From a virus (lineage: Duplodnaviria > Caudoviricetes), in IMG/VR virus record IMGVR_UViG_2891407665_000023, positions 916 to 64,915 of that record: a DNA stretch of 64,000 nt; one strand, 5' to 3'. The notes below the pieces were generated by a model that worked only from the letters and a program-made list of their open reading frames with translations, ran no database searches and was not told the origin of the DNA. Positions 1-13,623 of the stretch are shown in pieces. The translations under genes were made by a program, and so were the position numbers. The first letter of the stretch is position 1; every line of letters starts with the position of its first letter.

Positions 1-264
1 TCATTTTATTCCAGCTTTATCCATCCATCACAACCGCGAAACTTGACTGTGAGAGAAGCTGCAAGAATTCAAACTTTTCCAGACAACTTTGTGTTTATGG
101 GGAAGAAAACCACATTGAGCAAGAAACTTTTAGCAAAAAAAGGAATTTATGAAGAACTGCATTTGGATCAATTTAATCAGGTAGGCAATGCTGTTCCGCC
201 ACTGATGGCACATCATCTGGCGGAGATATGTAAATACCTGTTAACGGAGGGGAAAAAGAAATGA
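1..264 (+). CDS. DNA (cytosine-5)-methyltransferase M1, 5'-truncated by window edge
   Basis: Frame open from base 1 (SFYSSFIHPSQPRNLTVREAARIQTFPD...NQVGNAVPP): C5-MTase motifs IX and X; ATGA overlap with next gene. Confidence 0.9.
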   Translation, partial: SFYSSFIHPSQPRNLTVREAARIQTFPDNFVFMGKKTTLSKKLLAKKGIYEELHLDQFNQVGNAVPPLMAHHLAEICKYLLTEGKKK

Positions 265-1415
265 CCTCATTGGATATTTTTTCAGGTGCCGGTGGAATGA
301 CGCTTGGGTTTAAACTTGCTGGCATAAAATCTATAGGAGCAATTGAAATTGATAGATTTGCTGCAGAAACATTTAAATTCAACTTTCCCGAAATTCCGCT
401 ATATGCCAGGGATGTTTACTCATTTTCAGACGAAGAGATACAGGACTTATTTTCTGGAGTTGATATTATTGCTGGCGGTCCCCCATGCCAAGGGTTCTCT
501 GTAGCAGGACCTACACAATATGGAATTATAGATAAGCGCAATACACTCATAATGGAGTTCTTTAGATTTATTAAAGTGCTCCGACCGAAATTCTGCGTGT
601 TAGAAAATGTAAAAGGCATTTTGAGTGGGAAAATGAATTCTTCTCAAAAAGCGATGAATGTTTATATAGAAGCCCTATCTAATATAGGATATATAAGCAA
701 AGTTTATGTGTTGCAGGCGGCTGACTTTGGCGTTCCGCAGTTTAGAGAAAGAGTTGTCGTTATTTCAGTGCAAAATGAAACATTACTTCCTGAGAATATC
801 GTTGGGGATTATATGGGAGAGGAAAACTGGATAAAGGTTGAGGAGGTTTTTGGTGACCTTCCCGAAATTCATGCGGGAGAAGGCGTCAATGAGTTTGTCC
901 CCTATCCATGCGAGCCTAAAAGCGCATATCAGGAATATTTGCGAATTGGCTCCAAAGGAGTGGCAAATCATGTAGCGATGAAACATACTCAGCGTTTGAT
1001 AGAGCGTTTTGCAAGTATCCCACAAGGGGGTAGCCTTTTGGATGCTCCGTCTGAACTTGGACAACGTCAAAGAAATGGCAATGAACTTGATGTAAAGAAA
1101 CGGTATAAAACAAATAATCAAAGGCTTCACCCTAATAGAGTGAGTTTTATTGTTACTGCTTCATTTCAATCAACTTTTGTCCATCCGTATTTAAACAGAA
1201 ACCTAACTGCTCGGGAAGGTGCAAGACTACAAAGTTTCCCAGATTATTTTGTTTTCTGTGGTCCTAGAACCCTTATGAGTAAATCTCTTCTCATAAGAGA
1301 AAACCGACTCGATGAGATTGGATTGTCACAATACAATCAGATTGGTAATGCGGTTCCGCCTCGAATGGCAGAGGGAATAGCAAAAGCCATAATGCGAAAG
1401 GAGGAGCAAGAGTGA
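261..1415 (+). CDS. DNA (cytosine-5)-methyltransferase M2
   Basis: Motifs FSGAGG (I), GGPPCQGFS (IV), ENVKG (VI), QFRERV (VIII), QIGNAVPP (X). Confidence 0.95.
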   Translation: MTSLDIFSGAGGMTLGFKLAGIKSIGAIEIDRFAAETFKFNFPEIPLYARDVYSFSDEEIQDLFSGVDIIAGGPPCQGFSVAGPTQYGIIDKRNTLIMEFFRFIKVLRPKFCVLENVKGILSGKMNSSQKAMNVYIEALSNIGYISKVYVLQAADFGVPQFRERVVVISVQNETLLPENIVGDYMGEENWIKVEEVFGDLPEIHAGEGVNEFVPYPCEPKSAYQEYLRIGSKGVANHVAMKHTQRLIERFASIPQGGSLLDAPSELGQRQRNGNELDVKKRYKTNNQRLHPNRVSFIVTASFQSTFVHPYLNRNLTAREGARLQSFPDYFVFCGPRTLMSKSLLIRENRLDEIGLSQYNQIGNAVPPRMAEGIAKAIMRKEEQE

Positions 1416-2284
1416 ATTACGATGAGATGATAACTACAGTCAACGACCTAAATATTACTCAAGGGTTACCAAGAGAAGCCGTTCCGCATGGGAACAATCT
1501 CGTCCATCAGTTTAGAAAGCGGCAAATTGATCGGATGGATATGTACGAAGAGATACTTGCACTGTATTTGGACATAAGGCAAATTCCATTTGAGGAAACA
1601 GATGTCGCTTCTTATATTGGATTGATAGTTGAGAGAGTAAATCAGTACATGGACTATTTTTGGCCTCCGGCAAATAATCCTTTCTCACATCAAGCTGATT
1701 TTACATCAAGTATTATTCCTGAAATGCTGTGTCTTATATTTAATCATGTTATTCAATCCACAGGGCTAAATTTGGAGGTATCAGCTCAGAAAGACCTTAC
1801 TATAGAGTGTATTTTTGATATAGTTGGTGGCGGTGAAATGCGATTCAAAAACAAACGAGTCGATGTAGCTGTAGTAGAACCTTGTAAACTTTCGTTGAAT
1901 GAACAGACGACAGAATTTCCTATTCCTTTGCTTGCAATAGAGTGCAAAACAAATCTGGATAAAAATATGTTGTCAGGTATAGAACACTCTGTTGCAGAGA
2001 TGAAAAAAACTTTTCCGAATTGCCAATATTTCGTAATTACCGAATGTTCTGATTTTAATGTCAAAAAGTCGAATTATGCCTCATCTGGAATTGATGAGAT
2101 ATACATACTCCGAAAACAAAAACGAGGAGTTATTAGAAGGGCTCCTGATTTGAGAAATCCAATAGATGTTTCACTAATTTGTGAGATAACCGAAGCCTTG
2201 ATTGATAACATCAACGCTGTTTGCTCTATTAATGACGATTTGTTGACACGTATGCAAAATGGAAAGTTGATAGGGAGGATTTGA
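1412..2284 (+). CDS. Bpu10I-family restriction endonuclease subunit 1
   Basis: VDVAV...LAIECKTNLDKNML PD-(D/E)xK signature typical of Bpu10I/BbvCI subunits; GTGA overlap with MTase. Confidence 0.75.
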   Translation: MNYDEMITTVNDLNITQGLPREAVPHGNNLVHQFRKRQIDRMDMYEEILALYLDIRQIPFEETDVASYIGLIVERVNQYMDYFWPPANNPFSHQADFTSSIIPEMLCLIFNHVIQSTGLNLEVSAQKDLTIECIFDIVGGGEMRFKNKRVDVAVVEPCKLSLNEQTTEFPIPLLAIECKTNLDKNMLSGIEHSVAEMKKTFPNCQYFVITECSDFNVKKSNYASSGIDEIYILRKQKRGVIRRAPDLRNPIDVSLICEITEALIDNINAVCSINDDLLTRMQNGKLIGRI

Positions 2285-3150
2285 ATATGGAGATTATCGA
2301 CAACAAACATATTCACGGGAAAAATTTACGAGATTATACGGGCAAGCAAAAAGGGAATAAGCGAAATATATTCAATGGATTGATGCAGGCATATGAGCAC
2401 TATCGTAATACCGTGGATGCCATTGATTCATTGGAGGAAGATGGAATTGATAGCTTCGTTGATGCGCTTAACGAATATAGAAAAATAGCAGTTCCAGTAT
2501 TTGACTCTCTGGATAATAATGGTCAGGTTGCACTGGGCTACACCATCATGGAGGAGTTTTTTTATCTTCTTTTTCAGAAGAAAGTTGATATGATGAATAT
2601 TGAACATGAGAACCTTTTTGTCGGAAAAGGAAATTCTTATGTAAGTCTAAGTTTTACACCGAGTTCATTTTCGGAATTGTTTAACAGACCGAATGCTTAT
2701 ATTCATACAAAAGATCAAGATTTTGTTTTAGGTGCAAATGTTGAGATACAGGTTACGGCTGATGGTGAGATAGGAACGACAACTACGGTTATTCCGGCAG
2801 TTGCAATCGAATGTAAAACATATCTGGAAAGAAATATGCTGGATGCTTGTGCAGCAACCGCAAGCAGACTAAAAGCAGCGATGCCTTATTGTATTTATAT
2901 TGTAGCTGCTGAGTATATGAAAATGTCTGATGCGGCTCCTGAATTGACTGACATTGACGAAGTATATATTCTTTGCAGGGCCAAAAACGCTGATCGAGAA
3001 AGACGAAAAAGAGAAAATTTAGCACCATTTGATATAAATACCGATTTAATCGTGGATTTGTATAATCGCGTTAGTAGGCACTTGAATGCAATATGGTGGC
3101 AGCCAGAAAATGCAGTTGAAAACGGAAAGATTATTAACAGGCCAAACTAA
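2281..3150 (+). CDS. Bpu10I-family restriction endonuclease subunit 2
   Basis: DQDFVLG...VAIECKTYLERNML; paralogous to the previous ORF (shared IDEV/IYIL segment). Confidence 0.75.
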   Translation: MNMEIIDNKHIHGKNLRDYTGKQKGNKRNIFNGLMQAYEHYRNTVDAIDSLEEDGIDSFVDALNEYRKIAVPVFDSLDNNGQVALGYTIMEEFFYLLFQKKVDMMNIEHENLFVGKGNSYVSLSFTPSSFSELFNRPNAYIHTKDQDFVLGANVEIQVTADGEIGTTTTVIPAVAIECKTYLERNMLDACAATASRLKAAMPYCIYIVAAEYMKMSDAAPELTDIDEVYILCRAKNADRERRKRENLAPFDINTDLIVDLYNRVSRHLNAIWWQPENAVENGKIINRPN

Positions 3151-3170: not shown

Positions 3171-5054
3171 ATGCCAGATACCCGCTCGTTTACCGAATAT
3201 GTTTCAAACATTTTCAGCAATCAGTTCTGGGCTGCGGCAGAAGAATATCTACAGCAAAATTGGGACTCAGATGATTATGATTTTTACAAACTGCATAGAC
3301 CCGGCGAACCGGAAATTGACGATGTGAAGGTGGAACATGTCTGGGTTTTCGACAGACCTGGCATGCGTATTCAGTTTGATGTGGCGGTGTCCTTGAACCT
3401 TATTATTCCAGAGGCAGACCATCATTACGATGATTACGAGGAGAAAACAATCTGGCTGATGCTCCGCTGTGAGGGCGACCTCGACAAGGAACTTGAAGAC
3501 ACGACCATCTTTGAGATTTCCGCTTATAACGGTAAGAACCGGGATAAAAAGCCATTAGATGATTCCCTTGTGCCGGTATTCGGCAATGAGCAGTTGGACG
3601 AGATTGCGGAGGATTTTCTCCGCCGACATTACAAAAAAGCGCTTTTAGAGCCTTGCTGGGTTGATCCTGTTGAACTTGCAAACACTATGAATCTGACAGT
3701 GAGGTACGAAAACATCACGAGAGATGGTTCGATTTTTGGCCGCAGTTTTTTCTATGATTGCGAAACAGAACTTTACGATGCGGAGTCTGACAACATGTAT
3801 AAGGTTATGATTCCTAAAAAAACAATTCTGGTAGATAGAAGAGCTGCATTTTTGATGGTGCTTGGTGCCGTTAATAATACGATTGTTCATGAATGCGTGC
3901 ATTGGGATAAGCATAAGAAAGCCTTTGCACTGGCAAGGCTATATGATAAGGAACTGTCGAATATCGGATGCCGTGTTGTCGGTGGTATCGCTGGAAACAA
4001 GAGAGATGCTGTTGAATGGATGGAATGGCAGGCTAATGCACTGGCTCCACGGATCCAGATGCCATTGGCCATGTTTAAAAAGAAGGCCGACCAACTTGTC
4101 AGCAAATACCGCAGAGAGATGAAAGCCTATGATATGATTGATATTATAGAGCCTATTATTGACGGATTGGTTCTTGCCTTTGGGGTATCAAGGCTTGCTG
4201 CGAAGATACGGATGTTGGATGCAGGGCATGATGAGGCTTCCGGAGCATTTATCTATGTTGATGATCATTATGTAAAACCCCATAAAGCACCAAAGGGATA
4301 CCTTGACAGCAATAAGACATTTTCTATTTCCGTTCGTGATGCCATTGTTGAATCTAAATTCAATCCAGAACTGGTAGCAATCCTGGCGGATAACGAATAT
4401 GTTTTTGTCGACTCTCATTTTGTCCTAAACACTTCGCTTTACCTGGAAACGGACGAATACGGGAATATGGCACTCACCCATTATGCCAGAAATCATATGG
4501 ATGAATGCTGTCTGGTATTTGAACTTAAAATCAAGACATCTGTAACGGAACATTACCATACGGAGTGTTTCCTTAATAGGGATAAGTCATCTGATATTAC
4601 GTTTGAGGCGCATTATTCTGAAAAGAATAAGACTGCGAAAAATCAAGTACAGATGATAAAGGAGTACAATGCCGATGTATTGTCAATTGCAAAAAAACTT
4701 CCTATGAATTTTTCAGGTTCGTTGGATGCGCTTATAGGATGGGCAGAAATGACTGAGGAAGAATTAGCTGAAGCTGCAGATATGAGTGAAAAAACGATTC
4801 AACGTTTACGGAACACAGAGCCGGATAATGTAACGATTGAAACGGTAATGCAGTTGTGTATTGGGATGAAGTTACCGCCGGTATTGAGTTCTTGTTTGTT
4901 AAAAGCATCTGGGAAGAGTTTCATGATGACAGAACAGCATATCATGTATCAGTTTTTGCTAAACTCTTGCTATCATATGTCGATTTACGATTGTAATGAA
5001 ATGTTAACGGCTCAAGGATTGAAACCTTTAGGACGTCAGAATAGGGTTTCATAA
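3171..5054 (+). CDS. ImmA/IrrE-family metalloprotease fused to C-terminal XRE HTH
   Basis: HExxH (TIVHECVHW), EWQANALAPRIQMP, C-terminal MTEEELAEAADMSEKTIQRLRN HTH. Confidence 0.85.
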   Translation: MPDTRSFTEYVSNIFSNQFWAAAEEYLQQNWDSDDYDFYKLHRPGEPEIDDVKVEHVWVFDRPGMRIQFDVAVSLNLIIPEADHHYDDYEEKTIWLMLRCEGDLDKELEDTTIFEISAYNGKNRDKKPLDDSLVPVFGNEQLDEIAEDFLRRHYKKALLEPCWVDPVELANTMNLTVRYENITRDGSIFGRSFFYDCETELYDAESDNMYKVMIPKKTILVDRRAAFLMVLGAVNNTIVHECVHWDKHKKAFALARLYDKELSNIGCRVVGGIAGNKRDAVEWMEWQANALAPRIQMPLAMFKKKADQLVSKYRREMKAYDMIDIIEPIIDGLVLAFGVSRLAAKIRMLDAGHDEASGAFIYVDDHYVKPHKAPKGYLDSNKTFSISVRDAIVESKFNPELVAILADNEYVFVDSHFVLNTSLYLETDEYGNMALTHYARNHMDECCLVFELKIKTSVTEHYHTECFLNRDKSSDITFEAHYSEKNKTAKNQVQMIKEYNADVLSIAKKLPMNFSGSLDALIGWAEMTEEELAEAADMSEKTIQRLRNTEPDNVTIETVMQLCIGMKLPPVLSSCLLKASGKSFMMTEQHIMYQFLLNSCYHMSIYDCNEMLTAQGLKPLGRQNRVS

Positions 5055-5080: not shown

Positions 5081-5099
5081 CCGGACATCCCATGTCCGG
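5081..5099. promoter_or_regulatory. Palindromic operator-like site CCGGACAT-N3-ATGTCCGG
   Basis: Perfect 8-bp inverted repeat; core GGACAT-N3-ATGTCC repeated at 7015-7029. Confidence 0.6.
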
Positions 5100-5124: not shown

Positions 5125-6894
5125 ATGGGAAAATTTGATGTTGATAAGAAATATACTGAAGGTTGTTCTGTTTCATGGCACTCTTTATATATGGATTTGG
5201 TTTATGAGTTCGAAAATTCACATCCTGGTAAATTCATTGATGAGGATACGATTAGGGATAAATTTACTAATAAGGATGGATCGGGATTGGTGGACAAATT
5301 GAAATCAGTGTTGGGTTTTGACATATGTGGTATTGCCGGAACTGATGTTGCAGAACGATTCGATATGTTCAAAATTCTAAAACTGTTGTATTACATTGAA
5401 AAGTATGGAGACCCCAAATCAAAGGCTGTTTCTGATGATTATAGGATTCAAATTACGGATATTTTGGCAAAACCTCGCCTTTCAAATATATCAAGTGAGT
5501 ATACTCCGCATAGTGTATATGGGGAATGTTTTGGAGAATTGTATTCGAATATTAGAAAGATGGCAAGTGATGCAGAAGAACGAGAACATCGATTGGAACA
5601 GATAAATGGATATTGGGAGTATATTACAGACAAGGTTTTTGATTATGTTATCAATGATAGATCCTTGGAGCAGCCGGAGGAAGCTCTTAAGGAATTAGAG
5701 AGAATAAATCGATTTTTGAGGGAAAAGGTGTTGGATAAACTTAAAAACCACGATGTTATTCATTTGTCTCAACCAGAAAAGGTTATGCCCGCCTTCTTTA
5801 ACCTTTTGGCGTGCCATAGGTTATTATGCAATGAGCATGATAGAATTCGTATTAACTATGAAATATGCCTTACTCCCTCTCCAGATGCTGAGTATGTTGA
5901 ACATTTCAAAAAATATGAAAAGTGCGAAGCAAAATGGGAATTTTTATCCTTAATCGGAGAGCGTTTACAAGATAAGAACAAGGATCCCGGTGCGGAACTT
6001 GTGTTATATTTTATAGCCTACGGTAAAAACATTGATGATGACGATATCAAACATTACTTGTATGCTGTAGATAAATCGAAAATTGTGGCCTCATGGATAG
6101 AAAAATATAAAGGCGCTGATTTTAGTAAGGGTATTCCTTTAGATATGCTTGTAATAATTATGCAGGAACTCATCGACAACAAAAAGAATGGTGATAAGAT
6201 TTCAAACGATTATTTTGGCTATAACAACAAATATCGTTCTTTAATGACAGCGGTAAAGAATCCTGAAAAAGCAGATGCGGTTGTGTTACAAGCGTGGATA
6301 AAAAAGTTAGAAAATCGCACAGCTATTAATTTTGGGGCATTTGATTTGATTCAGAAGAAACGTGAGATTGAAACAACAATCTATGGAATAAAGAGCATTA
6401 TCTATTCATACAGAAATCTGGATGACCTGGAATTTGTAAATTCAGCTATATGCCATTTTGCAGCCCGCACTATAATGAGTAGAGACTTAGCAATGAGTAT
6501 AGGTTATCGTTTTGCCGAAAAAGTGGTTTATAATTTAAAGGGCAAAGCAAAAAGAATGATAAATTTTCATATGTGGCCTGAAGGTGTCAATGTGTTAGAT
6601 ATGTTCCGAGAATTTCTTGTAGATAGAAGAGATATTGAGGATTGTATTGCAGAAGAGATTGCAAGACAGATTAATGAATTTTATGAAAAGGATGATGATG
6701 TTATCGGTAGAGGCATGAGAGTTGATTTTGAAGTGTATGTTAGCGAGAAATACTGCAGGGACTTTTTGTTAATATATTTCGTTGACAAAAGTACTGATAC
6801 ACTAACCTATCAACAGTTCTATGAAGTTTGTCCAGATGCCGATGCCGAAAGAATGAAATCCTTGGGATTGGAGCAATTTGTTAAAACGGAATAA
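5125..6894 (+). CDS. Hypothetical protein (~589 aa, AT-rich)
   Basis: Long ORF; GAGGTG RBS before ATG 5125; no motif recognised. Confidence 0.85.
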   Translation: MGKFDVDKKYTEGCSVSWHSLYMDLVYEFENSHPGKFIDEDTIRDKFTNKDGSGLVDKLKSVLGFDICGIAGTDVAERFDMFKILKLLYYIEKYGDPKSKAVSDDYRIQITDILAKPRLSNISSEYTPHSVYGECFGELYSNIRKMASDAEEREHRLEQINGYWEYITDKVFDYVINDRSLEQPEEALKELERINRFLREKVLDKLKNHDVIHLSQPEKVMPAFFNLLACHRLLCNEHDRIRINYEICLTPSPDAEYVEHFKKYEKCEAKWEFLSLIGERLQDKNKDPGAELVLYFIAYGKNIDDDDIKHYLYAVDKSKIVASWIEKYKGADFSKGIPLDMLVIIMQELIDNKKNGDKISNDYFGYNNKYRSLMTAVKNPEKADAVVLQAWIKKLENRTAINFGAFDLIQKKREIETTIYGIKSIIYSYRNLDDLEFVNSAICHFAARTIMSRDLAMSIGYRFAEKVVYNLKGKAKRMINFHMWPEGVNVLDMFREFLVDRRDIEDCIAEEIARQINEFYEKDDDVIGRGMRVDFEVYVSEKYCRDFLLIYFVDKSTDTLTYQQFYEVCPDADAERMKSLGLEQFVKTE

Positions 6895-6947
6895 AGTTTT
6901 TAAGACGGGTTACTCAATGTAAGGGCAACCTCTAATAAACTAAAATA

Positions 6948-6993
6948 GAGTCATGAACGGCGGAAAAATCCGTTGTTCGTGGCTCTTTTTTTT
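6948..6993 (+). terminator. Intrinsic terminator
   Basis: GAGTCATGAACGGCGGA-AAAA-TCCGTTGTTCGTGGCTC stem followed by T8. Confidence 0.85.
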
Positions 6994-7014
6994 GTTGTTG
7001 TGAAGCTGAAAGCA

Positions 7015-7029
7015 GGACATCACATGTCC
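7015..7029. promoter_or_regulatory. Second GGACAT-N3-ATGTCC operator-like palindrome
   Basis: Same core as 5083-5097; upstream of a TACAAT -10-like hexamer at 7053-7058. Confidence 0.6.
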
Positions 7030-7103
7030 GAGTGATTTGAAATCAATTCAGCTACAATAAAATCACGAACAACAGAGGCTGTTCAAATAAAATTAATCTC
7101 AAT

Positions 7104-7301
7104 TGTCCGAGATGGCCATCAGGACGATGGGATGCATAGAGAGTTCAGGCAGCGGTGATAAAGACCGCTCCGGAAACGAAGATGCACCCACCGTTAGATT
7201 TCTGCGTCCATTTTCGGATTTTCAGGAGTCTGTGGACATCTTCACCACAGGCTCTTTCTGCGTTCCATCGTTCGTGGTCGAGGACGGAAAGGAACGCAGA
7301 C
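7104..7301 (+). ncRNA. Candidate structured leader / cis-regulatory RNA
   Basis: Several stems (7123-7137 with 7181-7195; 7151-7155 with 7164-7169; 7226-7235 with 7245-7254; 7257-7266 with 7291-7300, which covers the RBS). Confidence 0.5.
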
Positions 7302-7829
7302 ATGAAACTGAAGATTCGTTATGAGAACGAGTACCAGACAATTACGCTGGACGCAGAAACAACGGAGGAACTGTGGGTATCCCTCTCACTTGAAGGCGAG
7401 GGATTATCGCAGGATGAGCGAGAAAAGCTGATCCAGGAGGAATGGGAGAAGCAGTTCAATCGTCCTGATTATAACTGCTGGCATAAATTTTGGCGGCATC
7501 ACGGAGAGTCCAAGACGAAGCCGGGCGATGAAGAGGATGAGGTTGATACCTCCGAGCCGCTGATGGATGAAGTGGCGGATGATTGTATTTTCAGAAAGGA
7601 CGAGCTTGGTCGTGAAGAACGTGAAAGCTACGAGGCAGTCTGTCAGTTTGTCAGAGAAGCCTGTGGCAAGAAGGCTGACTGGGCAGAGATGTTCATTGCC
7701 ATCCGTATCGAGGGTGTAAGCATTAACGATTATGCCCACCAGATTGGAGCCGATTCGAGCAACATCAGTCACAAGTTAGAACGTGCGGCAAAGAAAATCA
7801 AAAAGTTTATGCAGAACCGTCAGATTTAA
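7302..7829 (+). CDS. Phage sigma70 region-4-like HTH protein (putative early activator)
   Basis: GGAAAGGA RBS before ATG 7302; C-terminal SINDYAHQIGADSSNISHKLERAAKKIKK HTH; no clear sigma region 2. Confidence 0.7.
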   Translation: MKLKIRYENEYQTITLDAETTEELWVSLSLEGEGLSQDEREKLIQEEWEKQFNRPDYNCWHKFWRHHGESKTKPGDEEDEVDTSEPLMDEVADDCIFRKDELGREERESYEAVCQFVREACGKKADWAEMFIAIRIEGVSINDYAHQIGADSSNISHKLERAAKKIKKFMQNRQI

Positions 7830-7856
7830 ATGTCTGCCGGGGCTACCTCTTAGAGG
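7815..7856 (+). promoter_or_regulatory. Bipartite motif copy 1 (AACCGTCAGATT-N14-GGCTACC-N3-TAGAGG)
   Basis: Same motif and spacing at 37748 and 42284. Confidence 0.7.
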
Positions 7857-7894
7857 CTCAACCTCGGCAAATTTTTTATAAGGAGGCAGTTGAT

Positions 7895-8257
7895 ATGTCA
7901 AATAAACCGAAAAACCGGACATACAGACCGCTTGTCTATATCTGCAGCCCGCTGTCTGGTGATATACCCAGCAATACGGAGAGAGCAAGACAGTTTTGTA
8001 AATTCGCCCTGGAAAAAGGGCAGATCCCGCTGGCACCGCACCTTATGTTTCCGCTTTTCATGAATGACGATGATCCAGCCGAGCGTGAGCTTGCAATGTT
8101 CATGGACGTGATCCTTCTTGGGAAATGCGACGAACTTTGGGTGTTTGGAGACCGTATTTCAGAAGGTATGGCTGTTGAGATAGAAATTGCAAAGAAGCGC
8201 AGACAGCCGATCCGTTATTTTAGCAGCAACTTGGAGGAGGTGTCCGAGCATGAGTGA
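7895..8257 (+). CDS. DUF4406-like / nucleoside deoxyribosyltransferase-like phage protein
   Basis: VYICSPLSGD...PLAPHL...CDELWVFG...SEGMAVEI. Confidence 0.75.
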   Translation: MSNKPKNRTYRPLVYICSPLSGDIPSNTERARQFCKFALEKGQIPLAPHLMFPLFMNDDDPAERELAMFMDVILLGKCDELWVFGDRISEGMAVEIEIAKKRRQPIRYFSSNLEEVSEHE

Positions 8258-8873
8258 GATTAAAGCAATCCAAACGGAATATAAAGGATACCTCTTTCGA
8301 TCCAGACTGGAAGCAAGATGGGCTGTGTTCTTTGATGCGTGTGGTGTGGACTGGGAGTATGAGCCTGAAGGTTACGACTTGGGTAATGGACTTTACTATC
8401 TGCCGGATTTTCTGCTTCACGGCGTAACTGTAAATCATGGGTATTTTGAAAAGAACTGCGATATCTACGTTGAAGTTAAGGGTCAGATGAACGATGTCGA
8501 TGGGGAAAAGATAAACCGTTTCTATGCAGCAGGATATCCGGAGAATAACGGATGGGGTGTTTCGCAGACAGCGGTTTTGGTAGTTGGAAATATTCCCGCT
8601 GGTGATAGTATGGACGAGATATTGGACTGCCTGCAGACCGCAGCCTATCGTGACCATCATAACTGGCCAAACTTTTATAACTTCGAGACGGTCGATGGCG
8701 ATTATTTTGGGGCATATCCCGGTGTAGACAAACATGGTGTTTTTAATCTGTTCGGCGATGACTGCAACTATCTTTGGAGTATGAACGCGGCAGCAACGGA
8801 ACATGCCTATCGCTTAGCAAGGCAGGCAAGGTTTGAACATGGTGAGACTCCCAAGGTAAGGAGGTTCAGATAA
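8250..8873 (+). CDS. Putative PD-(D/E)xK nuclease
   Basis: FRSRLEARWAVFFD...YEPEG...YLPDF...YVEVKG; GGAGG RBS before ATG 8250. Confidence 0.65.
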   Translation: MSEIKAIQTEYKGYLFRSRLEARWAVFFDACGVDWEYEPEGYDLGNGLYYLPDFLLHGVTVNHGYFEKNCDIYVEVKGQMNDVDGEKINRFYAAGYPENNGWGVSQTAVLVVGNIPAGDSMDEILDCLQTAAYRDHHNWPNFYNFETVDGDYFGAYPGVDKHGVFNLFGDDCNYLWSMNAAATEHAYRLARQARFEHGETPKVRRFR

Positions 8874-11221
8874 TGCGGGATTTGGTAATAGCCTACGGGA
8901 ATAACCGCCAGGCAAAGAAATGGGTCAATAAGACCACGAAATATACAGATTTAAAAGAGCGTCTCAAAGTTACGATCCGCACAACAGAGTCGGCTGAAGA
9001 ATACGCAAAAATGAGTAAAGCCCAGAGGGATGCTGCCAAAGACCACGGTGGTTTTGTCGGCGGCATCTTGGTCGGCGGCCGCAGAAAGGTAGATACGGTT
9101 GAGTCCCGTTCCATGATTGCGCTGGACGGGGACCGTATTGATACTGCATTCCTTGATAACTATGAAAGAAATGCTCCCTATACATCTTTCCTTTATACAA
9201 CACACAGTCATACAGCGGATAACCCGAGGGTACGCCTGATCTTTCCGCTCACAAGGAATATCACGGCAGAGGAGTTCGTGGCAGTGTCCCGATATCTGGC
9301 GCAAATGCTTGGTATCGACTATTTTGATGAATGCTCCTATCAGCCCAATCAGCTGATGTACTGGCCGTCCTCTCCTCAGAACGGCGTATTTGTATATAAG
9401 GAAGTGGAGAAGGACTGGCTCGATCCGGACGATATCCTGTCGGCGCACCCAGAGTGGACGGACCCAACAAGACTGCCAACATCCTCCCGTGAAAGCAAAG
9501 CCAACCAGATTTCACAGCAGAAGGTCCAGGACCCGCTTGAAAAGGAAGGTACAGTCGGGCTCTTCAACAGGGTCTTCTTCCCTGTTTCAAAAGCCTTGGA
9601 TAATTTTCTTTCGGATGTCTATGAGCCAACTGACAACGAGAACCGCTATCACCTGATTGAGTCGAGCAGTATGGCGGGCGTGGAGATCAAGGATGACAAG
9701 TTCGTGTATTCCCACCACGCGAAAGACCCGGCGTACCTCAGACTCTGCAATGCCTTTGATATCGTCCGTATCCATAAATTCAGCGACATGGATGACAAGG
9801 CGTCCTTTCAGGCAATGTGCGATTTTGCCATGCAGGTGGATGATGTGAGACTCCTTGCAGCGAATGAACGCCTTGCCGGAGCTGAGGCAGATTTTACTGC
9901 CATCGGGGATGATGACTGGAAGAAACGCCTCAAGTTCCAGCCGAGGACGAGTCTTCTGGAAAACAGTGTCTATAACTTGAATCTCATTCTTGCCAATGAT
10001 CCTGATTTCCAGAACTTTGCCTATAACGAGATGGCAAACCGCATCCAGGTGACAGGACCGTTGCCCTGGGATCGGCCGAAGGGCAACGCTTTCTGGCGGG
10101 ATGCGGATACGGCACAGCTGAAGTCTGTGATCGATATCCGCTATCTGCCGTTCTCCAGCCGGAACCACGATGTGGCATTTACCAAGACCGCCGATGACAG
10201 GCATTTCCATCCTATCCGCGATTACCTAGACAGTCTTCCCGTGTGGGACGGCATTGAACGGGTGGAGGATCTGTTTATCCGGTATCTGAAAGCGGATGAC
10301 ACTGAATATGTGCGCACGGTCACACGGAAGACCTTTGCTGCGGCGATAGCACGTGTCTATGTCCCCGGCACGAAGTTTGACTGCGTTCCCGTGCTGGACG
10401 GCGACCAGGGTATCGGAAAAAGCACCATCGTAAAGGACCTGGTCACGCCGGATTATTACTCCGAAACACTGTCCCTTACCGACATGGATGACAAATCCGG
10501 CGCAGAGAAGCTGCAGGGTTTCTGGGTGGTGGAGATTGGGGAGCTTGCCGGGATGAAGAAGGCAGACATTGAGAAGGTCAAGGCATTCCTGTCCACTTCG
10601 GATGACAAATACCGTCCCTCTTATGGCAAGGTGGTGGAATCGCATCCGAGACAGTGCATCATCATCGCTACAGTCAACGGTGAGAGAGGGTATCTGCGTG
10701 ACATCACGGGCAACCGCCGCTTTTGGATCATCAAGGTGCATCAGAAAAAGCAGAAGAAGACCTGGGATTTCGATGAACAGTTCCGGCAGCAGTTCTGGGC
10801 GGAGGCAAAGGAGATCTGGAAGTCCGGCGAAAAGCTGTATCTGGAGGGAGACATTCTCGAAGAAGCAGAAGAAGCGCAGCGCGGGGCTATGGAGACGGAC
10901 GAGCGCGTCGGCATGATCGAGGAATACTTAAATACCGATCTGCCGGACGACTGGGTGGAAATGGATCTTTTTGCCCGCAGGAACTTCCTCACGGGTACGG
11001 AGTTTGGCAGACCGGAGCATGACGGGAAAGCCATCCGTACCGAGGTCAGCAATGCGGAGATATGGTGCGAGTGCTTCGGAAAGAGCCTGCAGGAGCTGAA
11101 GCCTTCCGACAGCTATGGGATTGCGGCGATGATGGCGCAGATTCCAGGCTGGGAGCGGACTGCTGTGATCCGGCGTCAGCCCATATACGGCAGGCAGCGG
11201 CTTTACCAGAAAATCATGTAA
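8873..11221 (+). CDS. Virulence-associated E (VirE/VapE) primase-helicase
   Basis: N-terminal primase-like region; Walker A GDQGIGKST; SF3-like VVEIGEL; RDITGNRRFW. Confidence 0.9.
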   Translation: MRDLVIAYGNNRQAKKWVNKTTKYTDLKERLKVTIRTTESAEEYAKMSKAQRDAAKDHGGFVGGILVGGRRKVDTVESRSMIALDGDRIDTAFLDNYERNAPYTSFLYTTHSHTADNPRVRLIFPLTRNITAEEFVAVSRYLAQMLGIDYFDECSYQPNQLMYWPSSPQNGVFVYKEVEKDWLDPDDILSAHPEWTDPTRLPTSSRESKANQISQQKVQDPLEKEGTVGLFNRVFFPVSKALDNFLSDVYEPTDNENRYHLIESSSMAGVEIKDDKFVYSHHAKDPAYLRLCNAFDIVRIHKFSDMDDKASFQAMCDFAMQVDDVRLLAANERLAGAEADFTAIGDDDWKKRLKFQPRTSLLENSVYNLNLILANDPDFQNFAYNEMANRIQVTGPLPWDRPKGNAFWRDADTAQLKSVIDIRYLPFSSRNHDVAFTKTADDRHFHPIRDYLDSLPVWDGIERVEDLFIRYLKADDTEYVRTVTRKTFAAAIARVYVPGTKFDCVPVLDGDQGIGKSTIVKDLVTPDYYSETLSLTDMDDKSGAEKLQGFWVVEIGELAGMKKADIEKVKAFLSTSDDKYRPSYGKVVESHPRQCIIIATVNGERGYLRDITGNRRFWIIKVHQKKQKKTWDFDEQFRQQFWAEAKEIWKSGEKLYLEGDILEEAEEAQRGAMETDERVGMIEEYLNTDLPDDWVEMDLFARRNFLTGTEFGRPEHDGKAIRTEVSNAEIWCECFGKSLQELKPSDSYGIAAMMAQIPGWERTAVIRRQPIYGRQRLYQKIM

Positions 11222-13197: not shown

Positions 13198-13623
13198 ATG
13201 ACAGCAAAGGAATATTTACGGCAGGCATACCGCCTGGATCAAAAAATAAGCAGTGATCTGGAGGAGGTGGCATCGCTTCGAGAAATGGCCATAAGTGTAT
13301 CCTCTCCACAGCTGGCTGAGCGGGTACAGACTTCAGGAAATACAGATGCGCCGTTTGTGCGGGCATTGGAAAAGATTATGAATCTTGAGGAACGGATTAA
13401 TAAGGAAATTGATCTTTTGATGGAGCTTAAGAAAGAGATTCGGACGGTCATTACGACGGTTGAGGATACAGATGAACGCATGGTTCTTAAATACCGTTAC
13501 GTTCATAACTATACCTGGGAGCAGATTGGTAATGTGCTTCATGCCGATGCGAGAACGGTACGCAGATGGCATGGGAAGGCTCTGCAGCATGTGATTTTGC
13601 CTGATAATTCCATTACGATATGA
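13198..13623 (+). CDS. ArpU/RinA-like late transcriptional activator (DUF1492-type)
   Basis: MTAKEYLRQAYRLDQKI...LKYRYVHNYTWEQIGNVLHADARTVRRWHGKAL; position just before the packaging genes. Confidence 0.8.
   Translation: MTAKEYLRQAYRLDQKISSDLEEVASLREMAISVSSPQLAERVQTSGNTDAPFVRALEKIMNLEERINKEIDLLMELKKEIRTVITTVEDTDERMVLKYRYVHNYTWEQIGNVLHADARTVRRWHGKALQHVILPDNSITI

Follow-up and report, generated by a model that had tools for sequence, protein, structure and literature searches.

We analysed a 64,000-nucleotide stretch of phage DNA (IMG/VR record IMGVR_UViG_2891407665_000023, positions 916 to 64,915 of that record; "the window" below, with its own coordinates used throughout) and found that the region located just upstream of a small sigma-like gene belongs to a large and widespread RNA family that is absent from Rfam. 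This leader extends from ~7096 to 7301 and is preceded by a 5' hairpin at 7067-7085. Its helices covary among homologues, those that neighbour each other are mutually exclusive, the two competing folds are nearly equal in stability and the whole element is tightly linked to the gene that follows it. We propose, with a probability of about 0.7, that the leader is a cis-acting, riboswitch-like RNA switch with two states that sets the translation of the first early gene, and it probably decides whether the sigma-like activator gets made. An earlier note, made from the sequence of the window, had interpreted the same region as an antisense-like immunity RNA comparable to the C4 and CI RNAs of phages P1/P7 and P4. 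As described below, that interpretation turned out to hold in one half only: it was correct on the sequestration of the ribosome site, but the leader is not a C4-like two-box antisense RNA.

When folded in silico, the RNA corresponding to positions 7000-7370 reached -133.5 kcal/mol, compared to -94.1 +/- 5.0 kcal/mol for dinucleotide shuffles (z -7.83), in agreement with the earlier description of a structured leader of ~200 nt. Covariation was analysed using a sequence-only alignment of 58 non-redundant leaders (A4) and a model-based alignment of 89 distinct sequences, which was fitted to the A:C structure introduced here, with C:D, P5 and Pa left unfitted. From a first alignment, RNAalifold predicted that positions 7122-7136 pair over a long range with positions 7259-7273, forming a 15-bp helix between a purine-rich, Shine-Dalgarno (SD)-like segment (segment A, 7122-7137) and a pyrimidine-rich, anti-SD-like segment (segment C, 7257-7273); these and all other parts of the leader are given on the + strand. 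In A4, this A:C helix was 87% paired and 10 of its 15 pairs had changed on both sides (one column pair being CG21/UA21), while the model-based alignment gave 90.8% pairing and 12/15 compensatory pairs. Compensatory cells numbered 467 in the latter alignment, compared to 150 +/- 13 for shuffles, while pairing fell to ~40% when the partners were slid. Two local hairpins also covaried strongly across homologues: P2 (7144-7175), which was ~78-80% paired with compensatory changes at nearly all pairs, and P4 (7226-7254), a 10-bp hairpin already noticed earlier, which was 86-88% paired with compensatory changes at 8/10 pairs and which is followed by a U-rich tract on its 3' side. The loop of P4 (7236-7244) pairs with segment B (7178-7194): positions 7178-7184 in the 5' part of B and 7237-7243 in the loop form a pseudoknot (PK1) that was 80-82% paired, with 6/7 compensatory pairs and a score that none of 500 shuffles reached, and that is built from entirely different sequences in some clades. 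Thus A:C, P2, P4 and PK1, all of them above both the shuffle and the slide controls, make up the type of covarying structured core by which a riboswitch can be recognised.

Segment C has a second partner, segment D (7282-7301), which holds the SD sequence (AAAGGA, 7288-7293) located 5' of the ATG at 7302. The earlier note had pointed out two near-identical boxes flanking P4 (box 1, 7199-7209; box 2, 7255-7266) and had claimed that box 2, which is included in segment C, pairs with the stretch covering the SD sequence (7291-7300). All of these positions proved correct and so did this pairing, as 7257-7266 is the exact complement of 7291-7300 and as the resulting C:D helix is conserved and covaries, with 5-8 compensatory pairs among the 58-89 distinct homologues. 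Within this sequestering structure, an inner hairpin (P5, 7268-7287) was 77-79% paired with 4 compensatory pairs. Taken together with Pa, a small hairpin at the 5' end of the leader (7105-7125), C:D and P5 were 76% paired overall compared to ~40% when slid, with double changes such as CG24/UA23 and AU28/GC21. The long-range A:C helix, the PK1 pseudoknot and the palindromic loop of Pa described below were all absent from the earlier note; considering that A is a stronger covarying partner for box 2 than the SD region, the leader is better viewed as a two-state switch than as a simple lock.

We also compared pairings without any alignment, by calculating, for each of the 58 leaders and for versions with shuffled partners, the energy of the duplex formed by two segments. 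The A:C duplex had a median energy of -24.0 kcal/mol (z -4.81; z < -2 in 100% of leaders), followed by C:D (-19.6 kcal/mol, z -3.46, 74% of leaders), by A:B, in which A pairs with the 3' part of segment B at 7182-7194 (-17.2 kcal/mol, z -3.23, 74%), and by B with the P4 loop (-11.1 kcal/mol, z -3.53, 86%), while none of five control segment pairs was significant in this test. Since neighbouring helices share a strand, these pairings define two global states, X and Y. When A:C or C:D was forced, the two folds differed by a median of only 2.45 kcal/mol, with A:C the more stable one in 24/58 leaders; the window itself gave -87.6 kcal/mol with A:C and -88.3 kcal/mol with C:D. The leader therefore has an expression platform that is exclusive with its core, in which C pairs with either A or D, both pairings covary and their energies are close. 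Another pairing drawn in the minimum-energy fold of the window, between a conserved ATCTCA stretch and segment A, was rejected because it is not conserved (z -1.03).

In the model that we favour, the leader would be transcribed on the + strand from ~7067-7100 to the start codon at 7302, and five segments would work as a relay in which adjacent pairings exclude each other: P4 loop with B, B with A, A with C and C with D. In the shut state (Y), the RNA would form a row of local hairpins made of Pa, A:B closing P2, P4, and C:D with P5, leaving the SD sequence buried in C:D. In the open state (X), it would adopt a compact pseudoknotted fold in which P2, the box 1 region and P4 meet at a junction closed by the 15-bp A:C helix, with the P4 loop paired to B and the SD sequence left single-stranded. 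State X would then resemble the core of a riboswitch whose closing helix carries the anti-SD strand, much as in the add adenine riboswitch, a translational ON switch in which the 3' strand of the helix closing the core also serves as anti-SD, in which formation of the core frees the ribosome site while an alternative hairpin hides it and in which the two states are close in energy. The phage leader differs from add by its 15-bp closing helix and its lack of similarity to Rfam riboswitches, and it has extra layers in the A:B competition, in Pa with its palindrome and in the P0 hairpin (7067-7085), which is followed by an A-rich linker and whose structure is kept while its sequence differs among clades. 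The equilibrium between X and Y may be set by an effector that could be a small molecule, a protein or the concentration of the RNA itself, acting via the palindromic Pa loop, and the output would be translation initiation, possibly together with termination at P4. The downstream gene suggests no particular ligand, as it encodes a regulator and has no metabolic role.

Several observations weigh against this model. A:B shows little covariation, which we attribute to the high conservation of segment B. The significance obtained with shuffles is inflated by kinship between the sequences, which the slide and alignment-free controls offset only partly. In the single true RNA run, searched as contigs only, no contig lay over 7064-7594. 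The leader matches no riboswitch class of Rfam, and 15 bp is unusually long for a riboswitch P1 helix. Finally, the U-rich tract 3' of P4 is compatible with a control that would be partly or mainly transcriptional. In such a transcription attenuator, P4 and its U-rich tail would be an intrinsic terminator and B, when paired with the loop and the 5' arm of P4, would be the antiterminator, so that the products would be either a short RNA of ~170-190 nt or the full-length mRNA, with SD sequestration as a second lock. Riboswitches of Firmicutes commonly act by termination, the P4 stem has an energy of -13 to -20 kcal/mol in most members of the family, 41/58 leaders have at least 5 U in the next 8 nt and the pairing of B with the P4 loop covaries, all of which would fit. 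However, the tail has only 4 U of 8 in the window, where P4 was not picked up by a terminator scan, pairing with the A-rich parts of A and D also requires the U-rich tract, and the 9-nt loop of P4 is conserved for PK1 and atypical of terminators. We see attenuation as a possible role, less probable than the two-state translational switch. A leader peptide was also considered and rejected, as an ATG is found in the Pa region of only 27/58 leaders, opening reading frames that vary from 8 to 67 codons.

The two-state model leaves room for a contribution of Pa. In this hairpin, 7105-7108 pair with 7122-7125 (87-93% paired) and close a 13-nt loop that contains a 10-nt palindrome (7111-7120). Each of the 26 distinct Pa loops of the family contains a perfect palindrome of 6-10 nt, while 3.2 would be expected from shuffles, and eight different cores were found: TGGCCA, TGCGCA, GGCGCC, AGCGCT, GCGCGC, GACGTC and TAGCTA, plus TTGCAA in the new matches of the covariance model described below. 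The loop thus stays self-complementary through paired changes, as a kissing loop would. Because the inner four bases are self-complementary in every case, beyond what a stem extension would need, a kissing-loop homodimer would be the simplest reading at the RNA level. As Pa competes with the outer 4 bp of A:C, dimerisation is predicted to favour the shut state. One may then imagine that leaders dimerise through a kissing complex of their Pa loops that stabilises Pa and the shut state, in which case a high dose of transcript, or a resident copy carrying the same palindrome, would lower the synthesis of the activator; this could coexist with the riboswitch-like switch described above. We consider this possibility as tentative and as the less probable outcome: palindromes as long as 8-10 nt might also lengthen the stem slightly, a dimeric protein bound to DNA or RNA could equally explain a palindrome, the central positions are not unusually variable (entropy of 1.0 compared to a mean of 0.74) and two related prophages that reside in the same genome have the same palindrome. 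On the other hand, proteins with the same recognition helix are found behind different palindromes (L001 and L003), which makes it unlikely that the palindrome is the DNA site, or operator, of the downstream protein.

The two related elements just mentioned (L123 and L128) are found in one Lachnospiraceae isolate and their leaders are identical at 191/198 positions. As they share a palindrome within one genome, we make no claim on immunity specificity. For comparison, the dimerisation initiation site of HIV-1 is a GC-rich 6-nt palindrome that is flanked by purines in a hairpin loop and whose variants stay self-complementary. Pa shares these features, while it differs by being part of a bacteriophage mRNA leader and by its competition with a regulatory helix. 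It is conceivable, although we would give it only about the same limited credence as dimerisation itself, that the leader represents a new class of phage regulatory RNA reading a signal outside those of known riboswitches, either a host metabolite or factor bound at the pseudoknotted four-helix core, or its own kind and dose. If this was the case, homotypic kissing would give a family of prophages a means to count its own transcripts, or to recognise them, and thereby gate the master early activator; the leader would then be a sensor of infection multiplicity or kinship made of RNA alone and present in ~5% of Clostridia species genomes and in gut phage lineages (Candidatus Heliusvirales).

Concerning the second box, the earlier note had claimed that box 1 is the exact complement of a stretch of the coding sequence (7349-7359). 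This is true in the window, where 11/11 positions match and where the duplex has an energy of -20.5 kcal/mol (z -4.0 against codon-shuffled coding sequences), but not in the family, where the median z was 0.05 and where z was below -2 in only 5/57 leaders, at scattered positions. Close relatives alter box 1 without a compensating change in the target, which encodes D-A-E and is held constant by the codons for L-D-A-E; conversely, box 1 is unchanged in relatives whose target codons differ, so that this pairing is either lineage-specific or fortuitous. Likewise, the near-identity of the two boxes is found in the window and is lineage-specific; across the family, box 1 compared with the SD region gave a z of -0.28. 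Pairing of box 1 with the SD region or with segment A was rejected, as neither duplex was significant in the 58 leaders, and pairing with the palindromic loop was discarded by eye, as box 1 does not track the type of palindrome. The box 1 region (7198-7225) includes a conserved AUUUU stretch and could form a weak local hairpin (P3), with box 1 as the 5' strand and AUUUU in the loop, which is drawn in folds of single sequences; in the alignment, it was 56% paired (z -1.34). Box 1 is conserved for a reason other than pairing with the coding sequence, and it may be a junction strand of the core.

These results bear directly on the C4/CI-like hypothesis, according to which the leader, or a piece processed from it, would be an antisense-like repressor that uses one box against the ribosome-binding site and the other against the coding region, conferring superinfection immunity. 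The resemblance is real in several respects. Like the C4 RNA of P1/P7 and the CI RNA of phage P4, the leader is a phage RNA that heads the operon it would control and in which one complementary segment occludes the ribosome-binding site. Segments A and D are two like segments that are both complementary to a third one, C, recalling the seqA and seqC of phage P4 versus its seqB. In addition, an antirepressor gene comes next after the sigma-like gene in some relatives (Streptococcus phage Javan630 and Erysipelothrix phage phi1605), the palindromic loop suggests an RNA-RNA contact in trans, and covariation, which the earlier note had named as a check on both boxes, was found for box 2 with the SD region. 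It was not found for box 1 with the coding region, leaving the proposed second target unconserved. The Rfam search that the same note had called for returned neither C4 nor any other family (Rfam 15 cmscan of window positions 6000-9000, no match on the leader at E<=10); six divergent relatives also gave no match at E<=1. C4 is a stable RNA of ~77 nt that is cut by RNase P and that presents two segments (a' and b') complementary to its target mRNA (PMC5320573), whereas the leader is ~200 nt long and its box 2 forms one strand of a helix in either state instead of the presented loop seen in C4 (PMC5320573). Moreover, all partners lie in cis on one leader and every pairing can be explained in cis, and the hosts belong to the Bacillota when those of C4 are Proteobacteria. 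We conclude that C4/CI is a fair functional analogy in terms of topology but that the leader falls outside this family by two criteria, the model match and the second box, and we regard an immunity RNA of this type as an improbable reading compared to a riboswitch-like switch.

The leader family was delineated in several ways. With blastn against phage genomes, window positions 7086-7293 were ~75% identical to unannotated intergenic DNA in three phages, phi1605, Javan630 and Ruminococcus phage NatCom_38182 (Candidatus Heliusvirales), in each of which the leader-like DNA lies directly 5' of a hypothetical gene encoding 150-190 amino acids. When a 15-nt invariant stretch was used as query, 118 IMG/VR loci were found, 79 of them with the whole leader. 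Loci were also chosen by protein, which avoids selecting on the RNA: species-representative genomes were searched with an alignment of the downstream proteins. A locus search with a single protein retrieved just one close relative. Among 80 loci chosen with the alignment, 76 carry the leader directly before the start codon; of the other four, one lies on a contig that is truncated, and in two a short leader of a different kind also masks the ribosome site. A covariance model built here from the family (R1) found one leader copy per genome in four host genomes, with no second copy in these genomes or in the window, and gave matches in 8 further genomes among 150 drawn evenly/randomly from Clostridia; the five new matches that were inspected all adjoin an open reading frame (ORF) of 162-177 amino acids that is sigma-region-4-like, with the leader directly 5' of it. 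True matches scored 64-206 bits, with the exception of one divergent member, L171 (43.5 bits), and the reverse strand scored at most 27 bits. The leader is found directly upstream of genes for small sigma-70-region-4-like proteins in prophages from four classes, Clostridia, Bacilli, Erysipelotrichia and Negativicutes, with hosts that include Lachnospiraceae, Oscillospiraceae, Erysipelothrix, Alkalibacterium, relatives of Bacillus, Clostridium and, among the Negativicutes, Megasphaera, Veillonella, Negativicoccus and Selenomonas. Its 3' end is at a fixed distance from the SD site and the start codon across the family, and several clades keep the architecture with a very different sequence. We found no account of the leader in searches of the literature on Heliusvirales, on structured RNAs of phages and on C4, the contents of the catalogue of viral structured RNAs (PMC10690425) not being covered.

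Some members of the family deserve a mention in their own right. Three loci (L152, L153 and L168) encode a homologous protein and lack the leader; in L153 and L168, the upstream region is shorter but remains able to pair with the ribosome-binding site, and the upstream region of L152 has no such pairing. In elements from Streptococcus, Erysipelothrix, Megasphaera and Veillonella (L001 at ~3900-3990, L002 at ~3610-3700, L157 and L172), a conserved ORF of 43-47 amino acids and two more conserved hairpins, one of them with a conserved loop of ~20 nt, come before the leader, so that the transcript may start further upstream in these elements. Two copies of leader and gene are found on contigs of metagenome-assembled genomes labelled as Candidatus Micrarchaeota archaeon and Prevotella sp. 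(L138 and L195); the leader carrying the archaeal label is identical to an Erysipelothrix-type sequence, and both contigs are likely mis-binned prophage contigs. Lastly, mouse-gut metagenome contigs (runs X4 and X12) match only positions 7105-7140, corresponding to Pa and segment A, and then diverge into another member of the family, indicating that several leader variants coexist in one community.

The gene that follows the leader (7302-7829, + strand) encodes a 175-amino-acid product with a sigma-70-region-4-like helix-turn-helix (HTH). This product matches phrog_11138 (1.3e-23) and, searched alone, has no match in Pfam; since 12/13 aligned family proteins match Sigma70_r4_2 (Pfam), the label "sigma-like" already given to it in the earlier note is fair. 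The near-invariable co-occurrence of the leader with a gene for a protein with a shared C-terminal HTH raises the question of an autoregulatory leader, in which the sigma-like product, or else another phage or host protein, would bind the RNA and thereby bring it into its shut state, and the conserved purine-rich internal loop located between A:B and P2 would fit as well. Still, the N-terminal halves of the downstream proteins are of at least five unrelated types behind near-identical leaders, and sigma region 4 domains are known for their contacts with DNA and with RNA polymerase, not for RNA binding. We hold a protein-binding leader to be unlikely and somewhat less probable than attenuation, and keep the riboswitch-like switch as the preferred reading.

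Could the conserved element act as DNA, for example as an operator array, an origin or a nick site? Palindromes are found in the Pa loop and at 7015-7029, and the site is at the head of the replication module. Nevertheless, G-U pairs are frequent at paired columns (e.g. GC46/GU30/AU11) and are also seen in the P0 hairpin of relatives such as L003 and L131, which identifies the + strand as the RNA strand, and a G-U pair at a covarying column would become a C-A mismatch if the opposite strand folded or if the DNA formed a cruciform. Together with the constant distance that locks the 3' end of the leader to the SD site and start codon, and with reverse-strand scores that stay far below those of all but one true match, this renders a DNA-level element very improbable. 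The palindrome at 7015-7029 (GGACAT-N3-ATGTCC; no strand assigned) lies upstream of the putative leader promoter and has a second copy at 5083-5097, giving two matches in the window when 0.15 would be expected. One copy precedes a gene for a 600-amino-acid protein and the other lies ~40 nt before the 5' hairpin of the leader. The copy at 7015-7029 may be an operator of the leader promoter, and both copies are likely operators of the phage repressor. A candidate promoter was read by eye at 7037-7063 on the + strand (TTGAAA, a 15-nt spacer and TAAAAT), while a consensus scan with spacers of 16-18 nt found no promoter. Further upstream, a strong terminator (6947-6986) closes the preceding unit, and the minimum-energy fold of the window contains another long hairpin at 7000-7066, between this terminator and the leader, that overlaps the candidate operator and promoter.

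Control of a regulator by folds that occlude or expose its ribosome-binding site has precedents in the mRNA of lambda cIII and in the rpoS leader, which is opened by DsrA, RprA or ArcZ. As in these systems, an upstream purine-rich strand would act as an anti-sequestor in the phage leader, and the lambda gene also bears on the choice between lysis and lysogeny. In contrast to cIII and rpoS, the anti-sequestor here belongs to the leader itself and can in turn be captured by another segment, and the leader is much larger and is conserved in phages whose hosts span four classes of Bacillota. Little is known of how temperate phages of gut and animal-associated Bacillota make the commitment to lytic growth, and the leader sits just before the first early gene of such phages, in four bacterial classes and in an abundant order of gut phages, Candidatus Heliusvirales. 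Being large, pseudoknotted, strongly covarying and without a match in Rfam, it is a well-defined candidate for a new class of riboswitch or riboregulator. Cultured lysogens exist in Streptococcus uberis C8329, Erysipelothrix rhusiopathiae ZJ, [Clostridium] clostridioforme AGR2157, Megasphaera sueciensis TMW 2.2488 and Veillonella montpellierensis DSM 17217, and the R1 model could be used to annotate the leader, and with it the beginning of the early operon, across thousands of uncultivated prophages.

In the window, the leader is preceded by genes for a 627-amino-acid HTH protein and for the 600-amino-acid protein mentioned above, and the sigma-like gene is followed by genes for a DUF7768 protein, a nuclease-like protein, a VapE-type primase, an SNF2 helicase and a second sigma-like protein. 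This neighbourhood indicates that the leader heads the early/replication operon of a temperate phage, of which the sigma-like gene is the first gene. The second sigma-like gene (13198-13623) encodes another small sigma-70-region-4/DUF1492 protein (phrog_36, transcriptional regulator) that is probably the late activator; the covariance model found no copy of the leader in front of it. Near the start of the window, a gene for a C-5 cytosine methylase (261-1415) is followed by two ORFs of ~290 amino acids, the first with a Bpu10I restriction-endonuclease domain, and this region (261-3150) looks like a phage-borne restriction-modification system.

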